From a virus, in the IMG/VR virus record IMGVR_UViG_3300027850_000169, positions 27,697-91,696 of that record: a stretch of DNA of 64,000 nt. One strand, written 5' to 3'. Positions within the stretch are counted from its first letter, which is position 1. Every line of letters starts with the position of its first letter. Shown one piece after another: positions 3,214 through 27,827 of this stretch. A program made the translations under genes and the position numbers. Below the pieces are notes generated by a model. It saw only the letters and a program-made list of their open reading frames with translations. It did no database searches and was not told the DNA's origin.

Positions 3214-5015
3214 GTCAACTCCTTATATTCTGCAAGTGCTGATTCGTAAGCTTTAGTCTTGCCTGGTCGTGCGTTCCATAACATCCAAATAATTTCGGTT
3301 TGATTGTGTTTCATTTCCTGTTTCAGTTTTTGAATTAGCTCAATTGCTTGATTTCTGCCGAGTTTCAAGGGCGTGAAATAAACAATATCCGAATTGGTGA
3401 AACCATTGTCAGATGGTTGTTTCATGCCTTGAGCGGTATCTGAAATCATTTCAGATTCGCCTAACTCCGGCTTAAGACCGAAAATCCGTTCCAGCCTCTC
3501 AATCTCACTCTCTTTGTCTGTCTTGATTTCAGTTTGCGACTCAATCAATTTCATTTCTTTAGGTTGTTCTAATTCAATTACAGCAGTATTTTGATGCTGC
3601 TGTTGATAGTACCTGACATCAGCTTGAAGGCAAACACTCGCTGGTTCCAATGTCGAAAAAATAATAGGACGTTCGCTGTGTTGCGAGATTGGTCTAAGCT
3701 TCTCGAATTCAGCAATCAATCTAACTCGAATATCCTTGTCACTGATGATGTGCTGACTTTGAATCATGTAGGACAAGACACCATAAGAATCATTCACTCC
3801 TTCATCAGTTGTATAGTAATTTCCTAGCCCAATTAGGTTGAAGTTTTGACGCGAGTTGTTGTCGGCTTTCATGCCAATTGCTTTTAGATTGAAACTTTGT
3901 AAATCTGCCCACAAGCAAACATTGAAGTCACGCCCATTGAGAACAATATCTACCAATTCAACTAAGTAGTTAGAGTCTTTAACGTCGGGATGAGCGGTTA
4001 ACTTCTCTAACGCTAAGCTGATGCTGAACCAGTCAGCCAGTAGTAGACGAACAGGTGATAGATTCTTCCTCTTTTCCTCGTCTAAGTGTCTGCGCTTGTC
4101 ATAGATACTCCATACATGGTGAATAGTATCGAGTGTTTTTTTGACTTGGTTGATGTCAAAGATTGTGACTCTTCCCTTCTCTTTCAACCCACAGAAACTA
4201 TCATTTTTCTGACTAACTACCCAGAACTCTGCGGACGGCTGTTTCTCTTTGAGTATTGAAATCAAAGCCGCTTGAGTAACGCTTTTACCGCCGCCTGTAC
4301 CTGCAATCAATAGCAGGGATTTTCTCGATAACGCTAGCTGATTAAGAATAGCTTTCGCTTTAGTTTCGGACGGATGCAACAAACCCGGTTCAAGCACTGG
4401 TTGGCTAGCAATTTCAGTCACCCCAAACGTGTCAACGATACCGTCAGTCAAGATACTTTTTTTTTCAGCCTCGTTTTCACTTACTGACGGCAAGGAAGCT
4501 TGTTGATTGACTGATTGAGTGTCAACGGCGGGTAATTGCTGTTGCTGGCGTGTTTCCGGCTCACTAGCGTACCAATTGCTAGCTTCTGCAAGTTCAATAA
4601 ACGCGCTTTCGAGGTCTTTCTGGTGTGCTGTAACAGTTGTTGTTTTGTTTGCCTCGCACAACTCCCGCTCTGTCTGAAGTTCGGACTCAGTGCGAATCTT
4701 GCGAACGCGCGTTGCTTTCTGGTATTCTTCTGCCTCTAGCTCGACTTCTGGGAGTCGATTAGAGACTATCAGGAATGCCATCACCGACAGAGGAACCGAA
4801 CCCATTAACAACAGAATGGCTAGAATTGTGTAGTTTGATGCAACTTTGGTGGCGGGCTTCTTGAGCGCTTTGTATTCGCGCTCTGTGACGATTTGCTCGG
4901 TACTGGTTAATTGATAGCGGGTTTGTTTGGGAACCATTGCACCGAGTATCATCAGCGCGTAAGCAGCCGTCACACAGCCAGAAAACATTGCTACTGCTTT
5001 GAGGTTCTTTTTCAT
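3207..5015 (-). CDS. Membrane-anchored FtsK/HerA-like P-loop ATPase
   Basis: Two N-terminal TM helices, a coiled coil, Walker A AGTGGGKS, Walker B-like RLLLADW, and a GR..NV..W...Q motif. Confidence 0.75.
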   Translation of the reverse strand: MKKNLKAVAMFSGCVTAAYALMILGAMVPKQTRYQLTSTEQIVTEREYKALKKPATKVASNYTILAILLLMGSVPLSVMAFLIVSNRLPEVELEAEEYQKATRVRKIRTESELQTERELCEANKTTTVTAHQKDLESAFIELAEASNWYASEPETRQQQQLPAVDTQSVNQQASLPSVSENEAEKKSILTDGIVDTFGVTEIASQPVLEPGLLHPSETKAKAILNQLALSRKSLLLIAGTGGGKSVTQAALISILKEKQPSAEFWVVSQKNDSFCGLKEKGRVTIFDINQVKKTLDTIHHVWSIYDKRRHLDEEKRKNLSPVRLLLADWFSISLALEKLTAHPDVKDSNYLVELVDIVLNGRDFNVCLWADLQSFNLKAIGMKADNNSRQNFNLIGLGNYYTTDEGVNDSYGVLSYMIQSQHIISDKDIRVRLIAEFEKLRPISQHSERPIIFSTLEPASVCLQADVRYYQQQHQNTAVIELEQPKEMKLIESQTEIKTDKESEIERLERIFGLKPELGESEMISDTAQGMKQPSDNGFTNSDIVYFTPLKLGRNQAIELIQKLKQEMKHNQTEIIWMLWNARPGKTKAYESALAEYKELTW

Positions 5016-6488: not shown

Positions 6489-6814
6489 GAATTAACCTCT
6501 TTAAGTGTTGGCTCTCGGTCGTTGATTAACAATACTTGGCTTATGGCAATGTCGGTAATCCACCAATGGCTTTCTCTCTTGTCTGAAGGGTTGGAACCTT
6601 TTTCAATAATCCCCATACTCTTCAATTCGCTCAAAGTTACTGAAATGCTGTTTTCCGTGCGAAAACACCTCCTCGCTATTTCTTTGTTCGTACTAATACC
6701 GATTTCGTGAATCGCTATTAAAACCTTTTTCTCTCCTTGACTTAGGCGGTTTATTCGTCTCTTTGTTGCTAAATACTCTGCATGAGTCAATGTGATAGCC
6801 ATGTTTTTTAACAA
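6485..6814 (-). CDS. Winged-HTH transcriptional regulator (MarR-like)
   Basis: LS..E..VL, TNKEIA, S.TLSELK..GII, DKR wing. Confidence 0.75.
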   Translation of the reverse strand: MLKNMAITLTHAEYLATKRRINRLSQGEKKVLIAIHEIGISTNKEIARRCFRTENSISVTLSELKSMGIIEKGSNPSDKRESHWWITDIAISQVLLINDREPTLKEVNS

Positions 6815-12512: not shown

Positions 12513-12690
12513 TTGAACGACAAAGACTTTGACATCCTCACCGACCTGAAGGCACGGTGATTCCTAAGACTCACAACTTAGGTTTCTGCTTCATAGCACC
12601 AGCCTTAACAGATTTACTCTGTTCAGGTCTTACAGTCGCTCCACAGACTGACACGGCAAGCCCTGCCGCCAAAATATTCTTTGCTGCATT
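12513..12690 (-). ncRNA. Putative omegaRNA (tnpB 3' end + right end + ~16-nt flanking guide)
   Basis: Expected location for an IS605 omegaRNA; boundaries are approximate. Confidence 0.55.
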
Positions 12691-13828
12691 GATATCTCGG
12701 TCATGGTTTGTCCCACACTTAGGACACTCCCACTCTCGAATATTCAAAGGCAGCTTTTCCACAACGTGACCACAATGCCCACACATCTTAGAACTAGGAA
12801 ACCATCGGTCAATCTTGACAAAAGTACGACCATACCAGCCGCACTTGTATTGGAGTTGCCTGACCAGTTCCCCCCAGCTAGCATCACTGATAGCAAGGGC
12901 AAGTTTGTGGTTCTTGACCATATTCTTCACAACCAAATCCTCAACGGCGATGGTTTGGTTTTCACGCACCAGTCGAGTTGTCAGTTTGTGAAGAAAATCC
13001 TTTCTAGAGTCGCTAATTTCTTGGTGAACTCTAGCAACTTTAAGTCTAGCTTTGTGTCGATTGTTGCTACCTTTGACCTTGCGGGACAAACGCTTCTGGG
13101 CTTTCTTGAGCTTGCGACGTTTAGTTTTGAAGCATTTAGGGTTTGCAACTTTCTCGCCATTGCTCAGGGTAATCAAGCTAGTGATACCCAAATCCAAACC
13201 AATCTGATTAGTAGATTCTTGCCATGTTTCAATTTCAGTGTCAACCAACAAAGAAACAGTCCATCTTCCAGAGGGTGCAAGTTTTACTGTAATAGTAGAT
13301 GGCTCAGTATCAGGTGGAATCTCCCGACTCCATCTGATATCCAACGGCTCAATACACTTTGCTAAGTAAACTTGTCCATCTTTCCACTTGAAAGCGGACT
13401 TGGTAAATTCTGCATTGCCACCATTATGCTTTTTCTTGAAGTTAGGGTATTTTGCCCGACCCGCAAAGAAGTTAGTAAAGGCGGATTGCAGATGCCTCAA
13501 GCCCTGCTGTACTGGCACACAGCTAACTTCGTTGAGAAATTGCAAGTCTTCTTGCTTTTTCCACTCGGTCAACATCGCAGAAGTTTCAGTGTATCCGACT
13601 CGCTCTTGCCTTTCATACCAAGCCTCCGTTCTAAGAGCAAGGGCTTTGTTGTAGACTAAACGAGCGCAACCCATCGTTCTTCTCAGCAAGTTTTCTTGCT
13701 CAGGAGTTGGATAGAATCGGTACTTGAATGCTTTCTGTGTCATACTTCACAGTATAGCATCTATTTCGTGAAAGTGTAAACTTTAATATAAAGCCGTCCT
13801 AGAAGGACGGGGTTTCAGACCTATTTTT
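12529..13828 (-). mobile_element. IS200/IS605-family element, tnpB only (IS1341-like)
   Basis: Left end follows TTAC and has the hairpin ccgtccttctaggacgg. Right-end hairpin caccgtgccttcaggtcggtg ends at TCAA. No tnpA. Confidence 0.9.
12571..13743 (-). CDS. tnpB: TnpB RNA-guided endonuclease
   Basis: HTH start KAFKYRFYPT; RuvC GLDLG / AVEDL / DRDINAA; Zn finger CGHC..CPKC. Confidence 0.95.
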   Translation of the reverse strand: MTQKAFKYRFYPTPEQENLLRRTMGCARLVYNKALALRTEAWYERQERVGYTETSAMLTEWKKQEDLQFLNEVSCVPVQQGLRHLQSAFTNFFAGRAKYPNFKKKHNGGNAEFTKSAFKWKDGQVYLAKCIEPLDIRWSREIPPDTEPSTITVKLAPSGRWTVSLLVDTEIETWQESTNQIGLDLGITSLITLSNGEKVANPKCFKTKRRKLKKAQKRLSRKVKGSNNRHKARLKVARVHQEISDSRKDFLHKLTTRLVRENQTIAVEDLVVKNMVKNHKLALAISDASWGELVRQLQYKCGWYGRTFVKIDRWFPSSKMCGHCGHVVEKLPLNIREWECPKCGTNHDRDINAAKNILAAGLAVSVCGATVRPEQSKSVKAGAMKQKPKL

Positions 13829-19732: not shown

Positions 19733-20875
19733 GTCGCAATCAACGCCACTCCCTACTAGGGATTGAAACTTGTAGCGTTGCTGGGTAACAGCCATCTGGT
19801 AAGGTCGCAATCAACGCCACTCCCTACTAGGGATTGAAACTCGCTCAAGCCCTCAATTTTCCCAGCCGTTCCTCGTCACAATCAACGCCACTCCCTACTA
19901 GGGATTGAAACTACGATTTAGCTTTCACGGCTGGCAACAATTTGTGTCACAATCAACGCCACTCCCTACTAGGGATTGAAACCTCGGATTTAAAGCAATT
20001 AATTCCTGTATCAATGGTCACAATCAACGCCACTCCCTACTAGGGATTGAAACCTCAAACATCGTTTTCATGACCAACAGCAATTTGTGTCGCAATCAAG
20101 CTCCACTCCCTACTAGGGATTGAAACGCCGATTTTGTATTCAATTCTGTCGTTAAATTGAGTCGCAATCAAGCTCCACTCCCTACTAGGGATTGAAACTC
20201 TTGCCAAACAGCAGATTCTCAAACTGCATCCCGGTCGCAATCAAGCTCCACTCCCTACTAGGGATTGAAACGCCCGATTCAGCAACTGCTGGCGCTTCTC
20301 CCTCGTCACAATCAAGCTCCACTCCCTACTAGGGATTGAAACCGCTGGGATGAAAGCGCTAGCCCCCTACTAGGGATTGAAACACAATCGAGCTAAGCCC
20401 CTACTAGGGATTGAAACCATGAGTGCAGAATAATCACAACCGACCGCTACTGCCGCAATCAAGCTAAACCTCTACTAGAGATTGAAACTGAGAAATTAAA
20501 AATGGCACAAAATACAACAATATCGCAATCAAACCAAACCCCTACTAGGGATTGAAACGCAATAAACCTAAACCCCTACTAGGGATTGAAACTTGCTCCT
20601 GTAGTCGGTGGCGGTGGAAGAAAGGCAGTCGCAATTGAGCTAAGCCCCTACTAGGGATTGAAACCTGATGTCAACTGTTCTTCACTAGCAGATACCGAGT
20701 CGCAATTGAGCTAAGCCCCTACTAGGGATTGAAACGCAATCAAAGTAAACCCTACTAGGGATTGAAACAAACGAGAGTGCGACTTTAAGATTTACCACAA
20801 TCTTGTCATAATCAAAGCAAACCCCTACTAGGGATTGAAGCGCAATAAACTCCACTCCCTACTAGGAATTAAAAC
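19733..20875 (+). CRISPR. CRISPR array: 19 repeat units (GTCGCAATCAACGCCACTCCCTACTAGGGATTGAAAC and variants), 13 spacers of 33-36 nt, one ~15-nt spacer, four spacerless junctions
   Basis: Repeats at 19733, 19804, 19875, 19946, 20017, 20089, 20161, 20234, 20305, ~20358, 20384, 20452, 20522, 20559, 20628, 20699, 20736, 20805, 20842. Confidence 0.97.
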
Positions 20876-20883
20876 GAAAGATT

Positions 20884-22719
20884 TCACCGGGATAATAAAT
20901 CTATCCTTTTTGTTTTTGCCTGTAACGCCCACTTAGACAAACCAATTGAAACTTCCTTCTGTAGAAGTTCAAGGCTTAATTCGCCCCATTTTTTCGCTTT
21001 CTTTGTTGCTACCAATCCTGCGAACAGTGCTAGTTCATCGTTGACCGCCGCATTGATATCACGGTGACACTTCCAGCCGCAGGTACATTCATACAATTTA
21101 ATTTTAGGGTCACTCATTGATGCCATCTTGTTTAGGCAGACTGGGCAAGTTTGCGAAGTGTAGGCAGCCGGATTTCTCAAAAAAGTACGTCCGTCACGTG
21201 CAGATTTCTGTTCTAGTTGTGCAATGAAATCGCCGTGTCCCGCGTCAGATAACGACTTTGCCAACCCAGTTTTTTGAGCTTTCCGGTTTTTCTTGTAGCC
21301 ACCTTTCTCTGTATCTTCTTGTGGCTTAGCTTGTGCTCGAAGATTTTGTGATTGCAGCCCGTTTTCACAGGAAATAAATTGATAGTTGGTTACAATCTCA
21401 GAGCTAAGCTTTTGGTTGAATCCCTTGCGTTGACGTTTAATCTTCTCGTGTAGTTTACTAATCCGATTCTGAATCTTTTTCTGTTCACTGGAAAGTGCTT
21501 GACAGTTCCACTTTAACTTTTGCCAGTACATCCCTCCGATTAGGGCAATACCTTCAGCTTCACTTTTGATTTCACAAAGCTTTTTGGCTTTGTCAGGCGA
21601 GCAATTAATAAGAGCTTTGATGTCTTTGTGTCGCCGTTCAGGATGATTTAACCAGAGAATCAGTCGGTGAGTCATTTTGTTAGCTAGTTCTTTCTGAAGC
21701 TCCGCTAATTTAATTTGAGCGTTCCGGTAGTAACGCGGATTTCCGTACTGCTTGCCGTTGCTTAAACTGATAAAGCTGTCTAGTCCAGGGTCGATTCCTA
21801 TCGACTTAGTTGTTTGTTTAATGCGTCGCCCCCGAACCAATTCGCCCGTTAGTTGGACATAGAAGCCTGAAGCGTATTGACATATTTTGAAGGCGGCAAT
21901 TTCTGGAATTGTGCCGTCTGGATTTTTCCACCGACGTGCTAGTCCTTTTAGCCGCAATTCACGAAGACCTGGTATACCTATTAGAGATTGAGAGTTTGCC
22001 TTGGGAACGATGACACCTTTTGGGTTGTTGTGAACCAGGGTTGCAACCTTGTCACGTCTGCGTTTAAACCGAGGCCGCCCCTTTTTTGCACCATTCTGAA
22101 CCCCGGCTCTTGACTTTGTGTACTCTTGCCAGCTAGTATCCAATCCAGCAAGAACTCCAGAGCGAAACTTGTACGGCATTTCTGTCATGAATTCGCGGTG
22201 TGCTGTTAGGTTGTTTCCTTTGATGACTTGACCTAACCCGCCCGCCTGTTGCAAACCCGGCTTAGAAATCAACGTTTCGCTGAAATCAACCGACAAAGGG
22301 CAACTGTAACCAGTAACCGACCCATGTTCTGAGTTCTGCCAGCCCCAAGATTCTTTCTTCTCTGCTGGCTGCGGAACTTTTACCCGCTTCAACTCTCGGA
22401 TATACCAATGAGACTTATCATCGTAAATGACACTGTAGGGCGCTTGGATTATTGACTTACCTTTGTCTTTTGAAACGATTGCACCTTCCTCATCTACAAA
22501 GTGACTCCAATACTTCCAAGGTAATCGACAGCATGGAGCGTACCCGCCACTCTCTTTACCATCTAAACCGTTCGTAGCTTTGTAGTAGTAATAATTTGTT
22601 TCAAAATCTTCTAAGGCTGACAATCCACAATTCCACACAGACTTAGAAATTTGCAACCACTTTTCTATTTTTTCTTTCTGTTCAAGAGATGGAAAACATT
22701 TAAATTCTAGTGTGAGCAT
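20884..22719 (-). CDS. TnpB-derived compact type V (Cas12-like) effector, ~611 aa
   Basis: RuvC-I GIDPG, RuvC-II SCENG, RuvC-III HRDINAA; Zn finger CPVC..CTCG; large insertions relative to TnpB; stop 8 bp from the array; probable start MLTLEFK (alternative 22764). Confidence 0.85.
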   Translation of the reverse strand: MLTLEFKCFPSLEQKEKIEKWLQISKSVWNCGLSALEDFETNYYYYKATNGLDGKESGGYAPCCRLPWKYWSHFVDEEGAIVSKDKGKSIIQAPYSVIYDDKSHWYIRELKRVKVPQPAEKKESWGWQNSEHGSVTGYSCPLSVDFSETLISKPGLQQAGGLGQVIKGNNLTAHREFMTEMPYKFRSGVLAGLDTSWQEYTKSRAGVQNGAKKGRPRFKRRRDKVATLVHNNPKGVIVPKANSQSLIGIPGLRELRLKGLARRWKNPDGTIPEIAAFKICQYASGFYVQLTGELVRGRRIKQTTKSIGIDPGLDSFISLSNGKQYGNPRYYRNAQIKLAELQKELANKMTHRLILWLNHPERRHKDIKALINCSPDKAKKLCEIKSEAEGIALIGGMYWQKLKWNCQALSSEQKKIQNRISKLHEKIKRQRKGFNQKLSSEIVTNYQFISCENGLQSQNLRAQAKPQEDTEKGGYKKNRKAQKTGLAKSLSDAGHGDFIAQLEQKSARDGRTFLRNPAAYTSQTCPVCLNKMASMSDPKIKLYECTCGWKCHRDINAAVNDELALFAGLVATKKAKKWGELSLELLQKEVSIGLSKWALQAKTKRIDLLSR

Positions 22720-22778
22720 AATTGAAAATCTTTTGCAAAGGGCTTTACAAACCCAGTATATCATGTTATCTTAGTAAT

Positions 22779-22962
22779 ATAAAGGTAGGGAGCTTTCACC
22801 CCATTACCTGTGAGCTTTGACTCAAGAAAGCGAGTGTAGCGAAAGCAGCTTGAAGCTAGTCGTAAGACAGCAATCCTGAAAAATCGAAAGATGCGGGGAA
22901 ACCCAAACAGGATAATTATCTAGTAGGGCAAAAGAGTGGGAGTAATCTCGCTCTTTTGTTTT
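22779..22962 (+). ncRNA. Candidate tracrRNA
   Basis: TTTACA-17 bp-TATCTT promoter; four GNRA-capped hairpins; anti-repeat segments TTTCA, CAATCC and CTAGTAGGG; terminal hairpin followed by a T run. Confidence 0.7.
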
Positions 22963-22995
22963 GGATTGAAACTGAAATTGAAATTGAAATTGAAT

Positions 22996-23027
22996 ATCTT
23001 GACAAGATTAACAGTATCGTTTATAAT
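22996..23027 (+). promoter_or_regulatory. Consensus sigma70 promoter with an ATCTT-N3-AAGAT palindrome over -35
   Basis: TTGACA(22999)-17 bp-TATAAT. Confidence 0.85.
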
Positions 23028-26210: not shown

Positions 26211-27827
26211 ATGACATTAACACCTCGAACAGTTCCAGAATTAATTGCAGAAATTGATATCCTTACCTCTGAAATTCAAGAATTGTATTTGCAGGGAAAT
26301 CCATTCGTTGTTGGATGGAGTGGAGGCAAAGATAGCACAACCGTGCTTCAACTTATATGGAATGCTATTAAGCGACTACCAAAAGAACAGCGCAAATACC
26401 CTCTTTATGTGATTACTAATGACACTTTAGTTGAAAATCCAATTATTTCCGCCCATGTTAGGAATGCTTTGAAGTTGATAGATGCGGCAGCAAAAGAGCA
26501 AAATATACCTGTTATGACTAAAATGACAACCCCTGAAATAAAGAATTCTTTTTGGGTTTGTTTAATTGGGAAAGGTTATGCCGCACCACGACAAGGGTTT
26601 CGTTGGTGTACTGACAAGCTTAAAATTAGACCCGCTGAAAAATTTATCAACGAAGTGGTTACAATCGAAGGTCAAATGATACTTGCTCTTGGTGTTCGAG
26701 AGGCTGAAAGTGCGACGCGAGCTGCGAGTATGGAAAAACAACGTGAATTTAAAGTAAGTGAAAGATTAAATAAGAATCAACTACACGTTGGTTCACTTAC
26801 TTACAGTCCAATTCGGAGTTGGCGCACGGATGAAGTCTGGCTTTATTTAATGCAGTACGAAAATCCTTGGGGATGCGACAACAAGGATTTGTTTGCAATA
26901 TATCGAGGCGCAACAGCGGATAACGAATGCCCTCTAGTTGTTGATGCTTCCACTCCTAGTTGCGGAAGTTCTCGTTTTGGTTGCTGGACGTGTACTCTTG
27001 TATCTAAAGACAAGTCTACAGAAGCAATGATTCAAAACGATGAAGACAAAGAATGGATGCAGGTTCTACTTGATATTCGCAATGAGTTAGATGTTCGTGA
27101 TGACGAAGGAAAACACGCTGACCATGACAAAAGAGACTGGAAAGGCAACTCAGGAAAAGTAAGGTTTTACACTAAATTTTACAATGCGAGGGAAGAAGAT
27201 AATTCTACTATGCTTAAGCCTGTTCCAGGGCCCTACATCAAATTTTGGCGAGAACACTGGCTGAGGCGAGTCTTGGAAGCACAAACTCAAATACGCAAAA
27301 CCGCACCAGAAGAAATGCGCGACATCACCTTAATCACCCCAGAAGAACTTAGCGAAATCCGCCGCATTTGGAGAGAAGAGAAACACGAATTTGACGATAG
27401 TTTGCCCCGGATTTACGAACAGGCTACAGGAGAGTCGTTTGCAGACATTTCTTGTACAGATGAACGAAACGCTTTGGGTAAAGAAGAATGGGATATCTTG
27501 TCTGAAATATGCGAAGAAGATGAAACGCATTTTCACTTGATAGCAAGCCTCCTCAACGAAACAAATAAAACACATTTAAAGACGCGCCGCAAAGATGTAT
27601 TCAAAGCATTGGAAAAATGCTTTGACGCTAATTCCCGCTCTATGGAGGAAGCGGTTGCAAGCAGTCATGAAAAAAACAAGTTGACCAAGACTGTTGAATC
27701 CGTAAAAAAAGAAGGTCTTGGCGAACTCAATAAAGTTAAACAAATGTTAAACAAAGATACTCCCAATAGCAAACAGCTTTCTTGGGCTGACGTTAAATTC
27801 GCACCGTCTGTCGAACAATTACAATAA
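26211..27827 (+). CDS. dndC: DNA phosphorothioation sulfurtransferase DndC (PAPS-reductase family)
   Basis: SGGKDS, DTLVENP, IGKGY.AP...FRWCT..LKI.P, GVR..ES..R, ECPLVVD.STPSCG.SRFGCW.C, PGPY. Confidence 0.9.
   Translation: MTLTPRTVPELIAEIDILTSEIQELYLQGNPFVVGWSGGKDSTTVLQLIWNAIKRLPKEQRKYPLYVITNDTLVENPIISAHVRNALKLIDAAAKEQNIPVMTKMTTPEIKNSFWVCLIGKGYAAPRQGFRWCTDKLKIRPAEKFINEVVTIEGQMILALGVREAESATRAASMEKQREFKVSERLNKNQLHVGSLTYSPIRSWRTDEVWLYLMQYENPWGCDNKDLFAIYRGATADNECPLVVDASTPSCGSSRFGCWTCTLVSKDKSTEAMIQNDEDKEWMQVLLDIRNELDVRDDEGKHADHDKRDWKGNSGKVRFYTKFYNAREEDNSTMLKPVPGPYIKFWREHWLRRVLEAQTQIRKTAPEEMRDITLITPEELSEIRRIWREEKHEFDDSLPRIYEQATGESFADISCTDERNALGKEEWDILSEICEEDETHFHLIASLLNETNKTHLKTRRKDVFKALEKCFDANSRSMEEAVASSHEKNKLTKTVESVKKEGLGELNKVKQMLNKDTPNSKQLSWADVKFAPSVEQLQ

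Follow-up and report, generated by a model that had tools for sequence, protein, structure and literature searches.

The window analysed here is a 64,000-nt stretch of DNA (positions 27,697 to 91,696 of IMG/VR virus record IMGVR_UViG_3300027850_000169, a 91,696-nt virus genome rated 100% complete). It carries a type V CRISPR locus with an effector gene encoding a 611-aa nuclease, an array of 19 repeats and an intergenic unit lying between the nuclease gene on the minus strand and the perfect promoter of the next gene on the plus strand. An initial annotation, made from the sequence alone, had proposed this unit as a tracrRNA (trans-activating CRISPR RNA) with a split anti-repeat. The unit and its relation to the repeats of its own and of related loci are described below (Table 1).

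The catalytic RuvC triad of the nuclease (D325, E467, and D569 in 626-aa numbering) was invariant in the 23 homologues compared. The gene had been taken to start at 22764; the ATG at 22719 is the most likely start, because the 15-codon extension contains a stop codon in the sibling phage L001 and the database cluster representative has 611 aa. In the predicted structure model, beta strands are inserted behind the first long helix (residues ~58-143). Homologues of the nuclease numbered 27 among 5.8 billion protein clusters, and the lineage was carried by phages that infect filamentous cyanobacteria and, in a few cases, by the hosts themselves. No further member of the family was found in 400 sampled cyanobacterial genomes, and two of the homologues (P0008 and P0009) had no relative in the viral collection.

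Table 1. Features of the locus, in window coordinates
Feature	Position	Strand	Basis and remarks
CRISPR array, 19 repeat cores, 37-nt repeats ending ATTGAAAC	19733-20875	+	Convergent with the effector gene
Type V effector gene, 611 aa	20884-22719	-	TnpB core, RuvC D-E-D, zinc finger; Pfam OrfB_IS605 and Cas12f1-like TNB
Promoter-like site of the RNA gene, TTTACA-17-TATCTT with TG extension	22744-22772	+	Promoter scan, 9/12 positions
Promoter-like site of the effector gene, TTTATA-17-TATACT	22755-22783	-	Promoter scan, 9/12 positions; interleaved with the promoter of the RNA gene
Candidate tracrRNA, ~183 nt, ends inferred	22780-22962	+	Minimum-energy fold; 3-4 changes in L001/L002/L008; same build in other lineages
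5′ hairpin with loop TTTCA (22794-22798), candidate pseudoknot site for the repeat 3′ TGAAA	22784-22809	+	Fold and comparison
CAATCC, candidate upstream half of the anti-repeat, complementary to GGATTG	22871-22876	+	Overlaps an internal stem arm (22873-22878)
Junction hairpin, stem ATCCTG (22873-22878)/CAGGAT (22908-22913)	22873-22913	+	Encloses two small GAAA-capped hairpins; fold and comparison with L009
CTAGTAGGG, main anti-repeat, pairs with repeat CCCTACTAG	22920-22928	+	Complementarity and co-variation
Terminator-like hairpin, A-tract 5′ and U-tract 3′	22930-22962	+	Fold; equivalent hairpin and U-run after the anti-repeat in L003, L004, L005/L006, and L009
Lone repeat 3′ end GGATTGAAAC	22963-22972	+	Directly after the U-tract; in array orientation
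Tandem hexamers TGAAAC/TGAAAT, 4-5 copies	22965-22994	+	Begin inside the lone repeat end; copy number differs between sibling phages
Perfect promoter TTGACA-17-TATAAT of the next gene (ATG 23056)	22999-23027	+	Promoter scan; outside the RNA unit, marks its outer limit

Build of the intergenic unit

The promoter that had been ascribed to the unit, overlapping the divergent promoter of the nuclease gene, was recovered by the promoter scan together with its counterpart, the two sites being interleaved. Both hexamers of the RNA gene's promoter were identical in the sibling phages except for one A>G change in the -35 element, and -10 elements were seen by eye 7-12 nt ahead of the 5′ hairpin in loci L003, L004, L005, L007, and L009. 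The RNA would start near 22779-22781. All four GNRA-type capped stems of the initial annotation, as well as its terminator hairpin, formed in the minimum-energy fold of the unit (z = -2.7 relative to shuffles). The simple terminator scan did not list this last hairpin, because its stem is bulged. An Rfam search of the unit matched no family.

CAATCC and CTAGTAGGG, separated by a gap of 43 nt (22877-22919), were located by script and are jointly the exact complement of the repeat segment formed by CCCTACTAG and GGATTG. Pairing would involve the 3′ part of the repeat, the part expected on the mature guide, and amounts to 9-10 nt of anti-repeat plus a 5-nt pseudoknot site. Of 200,000 shuffles of the 243-nt intergenic stretch, 0.77% contained a 9-mer complementary to the repeat's last 21 nt, and 0.0045% (4.5e-5) contained this 9-mer along with the adjacent 6-mer within 100 nt upstream. 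The sequence features of the unit are therefore unlikely to have arisen by chance.

A possible second anti-repeat, GGTAGGGAG (22784-22792) in the first hairpin's 5′ arm, was considered and rejected: its pairing with the repeat is lost in the L001-type phages, whose repeat differs.

Co-variation of the unit with the local repeat

Eleven loci (L001-L011) were compared. The unit was followed through six lineages: the sibling phages L001/L002/L008, the contig L009, the viral contig L003, L004, L005/L006, and L007 (L004-L007 and L010 are genomes of Planktothrix, Lyngbya, and a member of the Microcoleaceae). Nuclease identity in these lineages ranged from 22% to 98%; the siblings, which include virus records G407 and G005, were near-identical, and tblastn identities were 31-43% for L003, L004, L005/L006, L007, and L009, with 43% for L009. 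Stems were compared across lineages by eye.

In all six lineages, a unit of the same build was found in the corresponding position, upstream of the nuclease gene and pointing away from it. The common build consists of a -10-like element, a hairpin with a (C/G)TTTC loop, more stems, an anti-repeat, and a strong hairpin ending in a U-run. Every lineage also had a hairpin directly 5′ of the anti-repeat. The units of L003, L004, L005/L006, L007, and L009 were complementary to 7-16 nt of the repeat of their own locus, and the anti-repeats of L003, L004, and L007 were lineage-specific.

Two pairs of loci showed compensatory double changes. The window combines repeat CCCTACTAG with RNA CTAGTAGGG, whereas L001, L002, and L008 combine CCCTATCAG (in most of their repeats) with CTGGTAGGG, so that one T-A pair becomes C-G and one C-G pair becomes a U.G wobble. 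The A>G change at 22922 was also present in a sibling contig from an independent metagenome run (X2). In the second pair, L005 has repeat TTAGGGATT and RNA AATTTCTAA, whereas L006 has TTAGAGATT and AATTTTTAA: the repeat changes from GGG to GAG, the RNA changes from TTTCT to TTTTT, and a G-C pair becomes A-U. We also observed that the leader-proximal repeat of L001 (~6720-6756) has the window-type stem CTACTAG and the remaining L001 repeats have CTATCAG; G.U pairing lets the L001-type anti-repeat match either form.

The 5′ hairpin's loop likewise followed the end of the repeat. Loop CTTTC occurred with repeats ending GAAAG (L003 and L004), and loop GTTTC with repeats ending GAAAC (L005/L006 and L007). 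L009 has loop CTTTC, its repeat being known only from repeat-like copies that end GAAAG or GAAGG. In the window, a C stands opposite a C and five pairs are left (TGAAA:TTTCA). The pseudoknot between loop and repeat that had been suggested for the window is thus supported by comparison, the loop motif co-varying with the last base of the repeat. When the RNA was co-folded with a repeat-spacer piece, exactly the anti-repeat and the 5′ loop site were paired, with a modest gain in energy.

Because the anti-repeat and the pseudoknot loop change with the local repeat, including the two compensatory double changes, and given its setting beside a type V effector gene and an array, we assign the unit, with a probability of roughly 85%, as the gene for the tracrRNA of a miniature, phage-borne type V CRISPR system. 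The comparison of homologous loci, with their equivalent divergent units, thus upholds the central proposal of the initial annotation.

Several observations weigh against this assignment. No RNA run was among the public sequencing runs listed as containing the stretch. The promoter and terminator are consensus matches only. The co-folding gain of -9.9 kcal/mol was approximately 1.5 standard deviations better than with shuffled repeats, which is not clearly better. The C-C mismatch of the window sits at the very pseudoknot position that co-varies elsewhere. The comparison spans six independent lineages only, and the middle of the RNA could not be aligned across them (the multiple alignment was poor); therefore, no covariance model was built. 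Finally, in L002 (virus record G407, 83.9 kb, complete, with terminal repeats) the nuclease gene is shortened to ~184 aa (4001-4552) and joined directly to the array, whereas the upstream RNA gene is intact; conservation of the RNA in L002 cannot be due to present function with the nuclease of L002.

That the unit is instead a small regulatory or antisense RNA unrelated to guides, for example one controlling the overlapping nuclease promoter, with a decayed inverted repeat copy as its repeat match, is highly improbable: the two promoters do interleave, the repeat is nearly palindromic, so that repeat debris can resemble an anti-repeat, and repeat-like motifs lie beside the nuclease start codon in L005, L006, and L007, but debris would not be expected to keep its pairing through compensatory changes in two separate locus pairs, nor to have a pseudoknot loop that follows the repeat end.

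The motifs at the start codon resemble the 3′ end of the repeat and lie within ~10 nt of the codon (~3988-3999 in L005 and L006; 3798-3806 in L007). They were significant against shuffles in these three loci (P ≤ 0.003) and not significant in the window. In L005 and L006, the motif is on the strand of the nuclease gene, and in L007, it is on the opposite strand, in each case that of the array. A similar motif was seen by eye in L009 (~2250-2263), where the shuffle test says nothing, having been run on a mis-sliced proxy. Such motifs might serve autoregulation or be a further remnant of an array.

For the tracrRNA, we infer transcription, exact ends, nuclease binding, and DNA cutting in the following order. 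An RNA of ~183 nt would be transcribed away from the nuclease gene, starting at a promoter of its own, and would end at the intrinsic terminator. Its 3′ anti-repeat CTAGTAGGG would open the small hairpin of the repeat and pair with CCCTACTAG in the array transcript, and the loop TTTCA of the 5′ hairpin would form a short pseudoknot with the last repeat bases, TGAAA. The intervening GGAT(TG) would be either paired by CAATCC or held by protein. The 611-aa nuclease would then bind this two-RNA scaffold, the spacer would find the DNA, and the intact RuvC site would cut it.

The split anti-repeat of the initial annotation stood up in part. Its 3′ segment, CTAGTAGGG, is backed by the compensatory partner change in the sibling phages, whereas the 5′ segment, CAATCC, is plausible and unproven; the odds that it pairs with the repeat in the working complex are about one half. 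With this pairing, the last 19 nt of the repeat are all covered, and the contiguous anti-repeats of L004 and L005/L006 (16-17 pairs with a bulge of 1-2 nt) give the same coverage. L003 is similar to the window, with CAAT followed by a hairpin and then the anti-repeat. CAATCC is invariant among close relatives and absent in L009, yet there a 10-nt stretch of the pseudoknot loop covers GGATTGAAAG. Against the pairing, CAATCC overlaps the 5′ arm of the junction stem ATCCTG/CAGGAT, which was kept both in the single fold and in the co-fold and has a compensatory counterpart in L009 (ACCCTG/CAGGGT, a U-A pair of the window becoming C-G). Further intramolecular compensatory changes between the window and L009 were seen by eye around a common GTGTAGC motif.

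The array and the lone repeat end

The array (full repeat, for example, at 19733-19769) has a conserved leader on its left side. It is in use now or was recently: the leader is common to the window and to sibling phages with 98% identity, and none of the spacers is. The position and orientation of the array vary between lineages. Rfam gave weak CRISPR-DR5 matches, under the gathering score. No spacer targets were found in GenBank phages, in the compared loci, or in the sibling phage genomes, and two spacers searched against viral contigs had zero targets. Spacers two units apart are alike at 19912-20161 (period 142, 78% matches in Tandem Repeats Finder) and look like independent captures of one site from diverged targets. 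The trailer half of the array (20343-20875) contains truncated repeats and four repeat-repeat junctions without a spacer; the 3′ 19 nt are nearly invariant and the 5′ halves vary in blocks.

As the initial annotation had noted, a single 3′ end of the repeat follows the terminator of the RNA gene. The 91.7-kb phage genome contains 17 copies of GGATTGAAAC, all on the plus strand: 16 are in the array and the other is this lone one. It is kept in L001 and L008, L002 has the version GGATTGAAAT, and the equivalent in L009 is GGGATTGAAAG, 5 nt past the terminator; none was found in L003-L006. The lone repeat end is real and not a product of chance. Homology between the window and L001/L008 ends one base past it. 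In L001, L008, and the contig of run X2, a 4,204-nt cassette lies directly after the lone repeat end and before the next promoter (L001 1-3793 and reverse strand of L017, ~2235-2165; insertion point at 22973/22992 of the window). Its genes encode QueC, GTP cyclohydrolase I (FolE), QueD, a radical-SAM QueE-like protein, and a 338-aa protein, and point to synthesis of the 7-deazaguanine/queuosine type. A degenerate full-length repeat in the same orientation was found at the far end of the cassette, 4.2 kb on; it scored 42, whereas 100 shufflings of this stretch gave best scores that averaged 30.4 and reached 41 at most. In L007, the order is nuclease gene (leftward), RNA gene (rightward), and full array (rightward).

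The lone repeat end had been interpreted as a possible relic of an ancestral single-piece omegaRNA, the unit being an intermediate between omegaRNA and tracrRNA. The simplest reading is a different one, to which we give an even chance: the fragment would be the dead, functionless remnant of a second array that once followed the RNA gene, which leaves the tracrRNA assignment unaffected. In L007, the RNA gene is followed by a whole array, and the L001-type cassette has the degenerate repeat, in the same orientation, at its far end; therefore, a vestigial array on the tracrRNA side explains the fragment at least as well as an omegaRNA relic does. Arrays also move in this nuclease family, as their differing position and orientation indicate. 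However, a dead piece is unlikely to be kept intact, over 10-11 nt and at the same spot, in both the window and the distant L009, where the fragment even matches the pseudoknot loop of L009 itself.

An unlikely reading is that of a natural single-guide RNA. Read-through of the terminator would carry GGATTGAAAC in cis, the next 17-20 nt would serve as a fixed guide, and the terminator hairpin would replace the helix between repeat and anti-repeat; this role would be added to that of the tracrRNA and would not replace it. Such an RNA would be similar to an omegaRNA, or to the truncated repeat-spacer units found in Cas12k transposons. What the fragment keeps of the repeat is exactly the stretch able to pair with CAATCC and with the pseudoknot loop; its orientation is the right one, and the genome contains no other extra copy. 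L009 keeps the fragment after its terminator despite 43% nuclease identity, and its last base matches the loop of L009, giving 10 pairs. The end of homology with L001/L008 one base past the fragment would also fit, and Cas12k elements use repeat remnants of ~13 nt with 17-nt spacers as dedicated guides (bioRxiv 10.1101/2021.02.06.429022). On the other side, the fragment lies behind a strong hairpin and U-run that are conserved as a terminator in all lineages, and it is absent in L003-L006. The would-be guides are wholly different between siblings: that of L001, the one searched, had no second match in four phage genomes, and that of the window is a simple hexamer repeat of variable copy number.

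It is doubtful that the gene yields two products, a terminated tracrRNA for the array and a read-through RNA in which the lone repeat end, with the DNA beside it, acts as a built-in guide. If it did, a living unsplit omegaRNA-like guide would exist inside a CRISPR system, and the built-in guide could mark the genomic junction of the module, so that the module could home into sibling phages, exclude them, or regulate itself. The omegaRNA relic is the least supported reading, because the RNA gene is not at the position of an omegaRNA (it is upstream and divergent in six lineages) and an intrinsic terminator intervenes before the fragment; an intermediate between omegaRNA and tracrRNA was not shown.

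Related systems and meaning of the finding

By structure, the top Foldseek match of the nuclease was Cas12p (E = 5e-19, TM about 0.5). In structure alignments with VIA, Cas12p had the most residues aligned (393-426, Z = 16.2-16.5, 22-23% identity), whereas TnpB had the highest Z, above that of Cas12p (19.5-21.5, over 336-373 residues, with 336 at the top value); LaTranC reached Z = 15.4. The best solved relative by sequence in phmmer was also Cas12p, with a match to the RuvC part only (E = 3e-16).

Cas12p ("Cas12 hacker", type V-P) is described in a preprint as a phage-borne, TnpB-derived nuclease of 500-700 aa with 37-nt repeats and a tracrRNA of ~185 nt, in which stem 1 forms a pseudoknot between GUUU and the AAAC of the repeat (bioRxiv 10.1101/2025.01.20.633832; further sources are Wang et al. 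2026, Nat Microbiol, as cited in PMC13728456, and PDB entries 9jfs and 9jg3). A thioredoxin-binding domain and dependence on host thioredoxin are further marks of Cas12p systems. The system of the window resembles Cas12p in having a phage-borne miniature TnpB-derived nuclease, a 37-nt repeat ending AAAC, a candidate tracrRNA of similar length (~185 nt) with several stems, and a pseudoknot motif in the loop of the 5′ hairpin that co-varies with the repeat end. It differs in the pseudoknot itself (TGAAA:TTTCA instead of AAAC:GUUU), in a sequence likeness limited to the RuvC part, and in that TnpB outscores Cas12p by Z. By analogy, the RNA probably works like a Cas12p tracrRNA; the nuclease resembles Cas12p in sequence and structure and may belong to that type.

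TnpB is the best structural match of the nuclease, and the scaffold of the window, followed by a repeat end, resembles the unsplit form of the guide. However, an omegaRNA is encoded on the strand of the nuclease gene, at or beyond the 3′ end of that gene, whereas the unit of the window is upstream and on the opposite strand, and the terminator-like hairpin with its U-run separates scaffold from repeat end. That a tracrRNA plus repeat end is a split omegaRNA has already been published for TranC-grade systems (Jin et al. 2025, Cell, as described in PMC13565253 and bioRxiv 10.64898/2026.03.27.714800).

The likeness to Cas12k lies in the cyanobacterial setting, in 37-nt repeats ending TTGAAA(C/G), and in the lone 10-11-nt repeat remnant, limited to the part that pairs with the tracrRNA (the CAATCC and loop sites). 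In Cas12k structures, the tracrRNA contacts the repeat through at least two paired segments and also forms a pseudoknot. Membership in Cas12k was rejected (Z about 10), and the RuvC site of the window nuclease is intact. No Tn7-like genes were noticed in a Pfam scan of neighbouring genes.

The type V-U2 locus of the Aphanizomenon cyanophage vB_AphaS-CL131 has a TnpB-like nuclease by an array, and no tracrRNA was reported for it (PMC6293099). It is likewise from a phage of filamentous cyanobacteria, with a TnpB-like nuclease beside an array and a Bro-N gene, whereas its nuclease belongs to another family (466 aa; 32% identity over half the length) and its 36-nt repeat is different. Between the TnpB-like gene and the array of CL131 (L016 4030-4290), we observed a structured-looking stretch with the last 9 nt of the repeat and their complement.

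Two other genes of the window are recorded here. A second TnpB-like gene, of ordinary size (390 aa, 12571-13743, minus strand), matched the nuclease profile in its RuvC and WED parts only. The operon downstream of the RNA gene ends with a gene for a 538-aa protein with a PAPS-reductase domain (26211-27827; Pfam).

The concept of such tracrRNAs as split TnpB guides is already published, and the lone repeat end is one small unexplained feature here. If the assignment is right, the finding supplies the helper RNA that was missing for this rare lineage of small nucleases; the closest case published from a cyanophage (CL131 type V-U2, 2018) was reported with no tracrRNA. The RNA ends proposed here, the anti-repeat, and the pseudoknot site are what is needed to design a single guide for the 611-aa nuclease. 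The family would have one design of helper RNA, in which contiguous, split, or pseudoknot-extended pairing covers the same repeat bases, and this variety of coverage, together with the repeat fragments around the RNA gene, bears on how tracrRNAs and arrays originated from TnpB guide RNAs.

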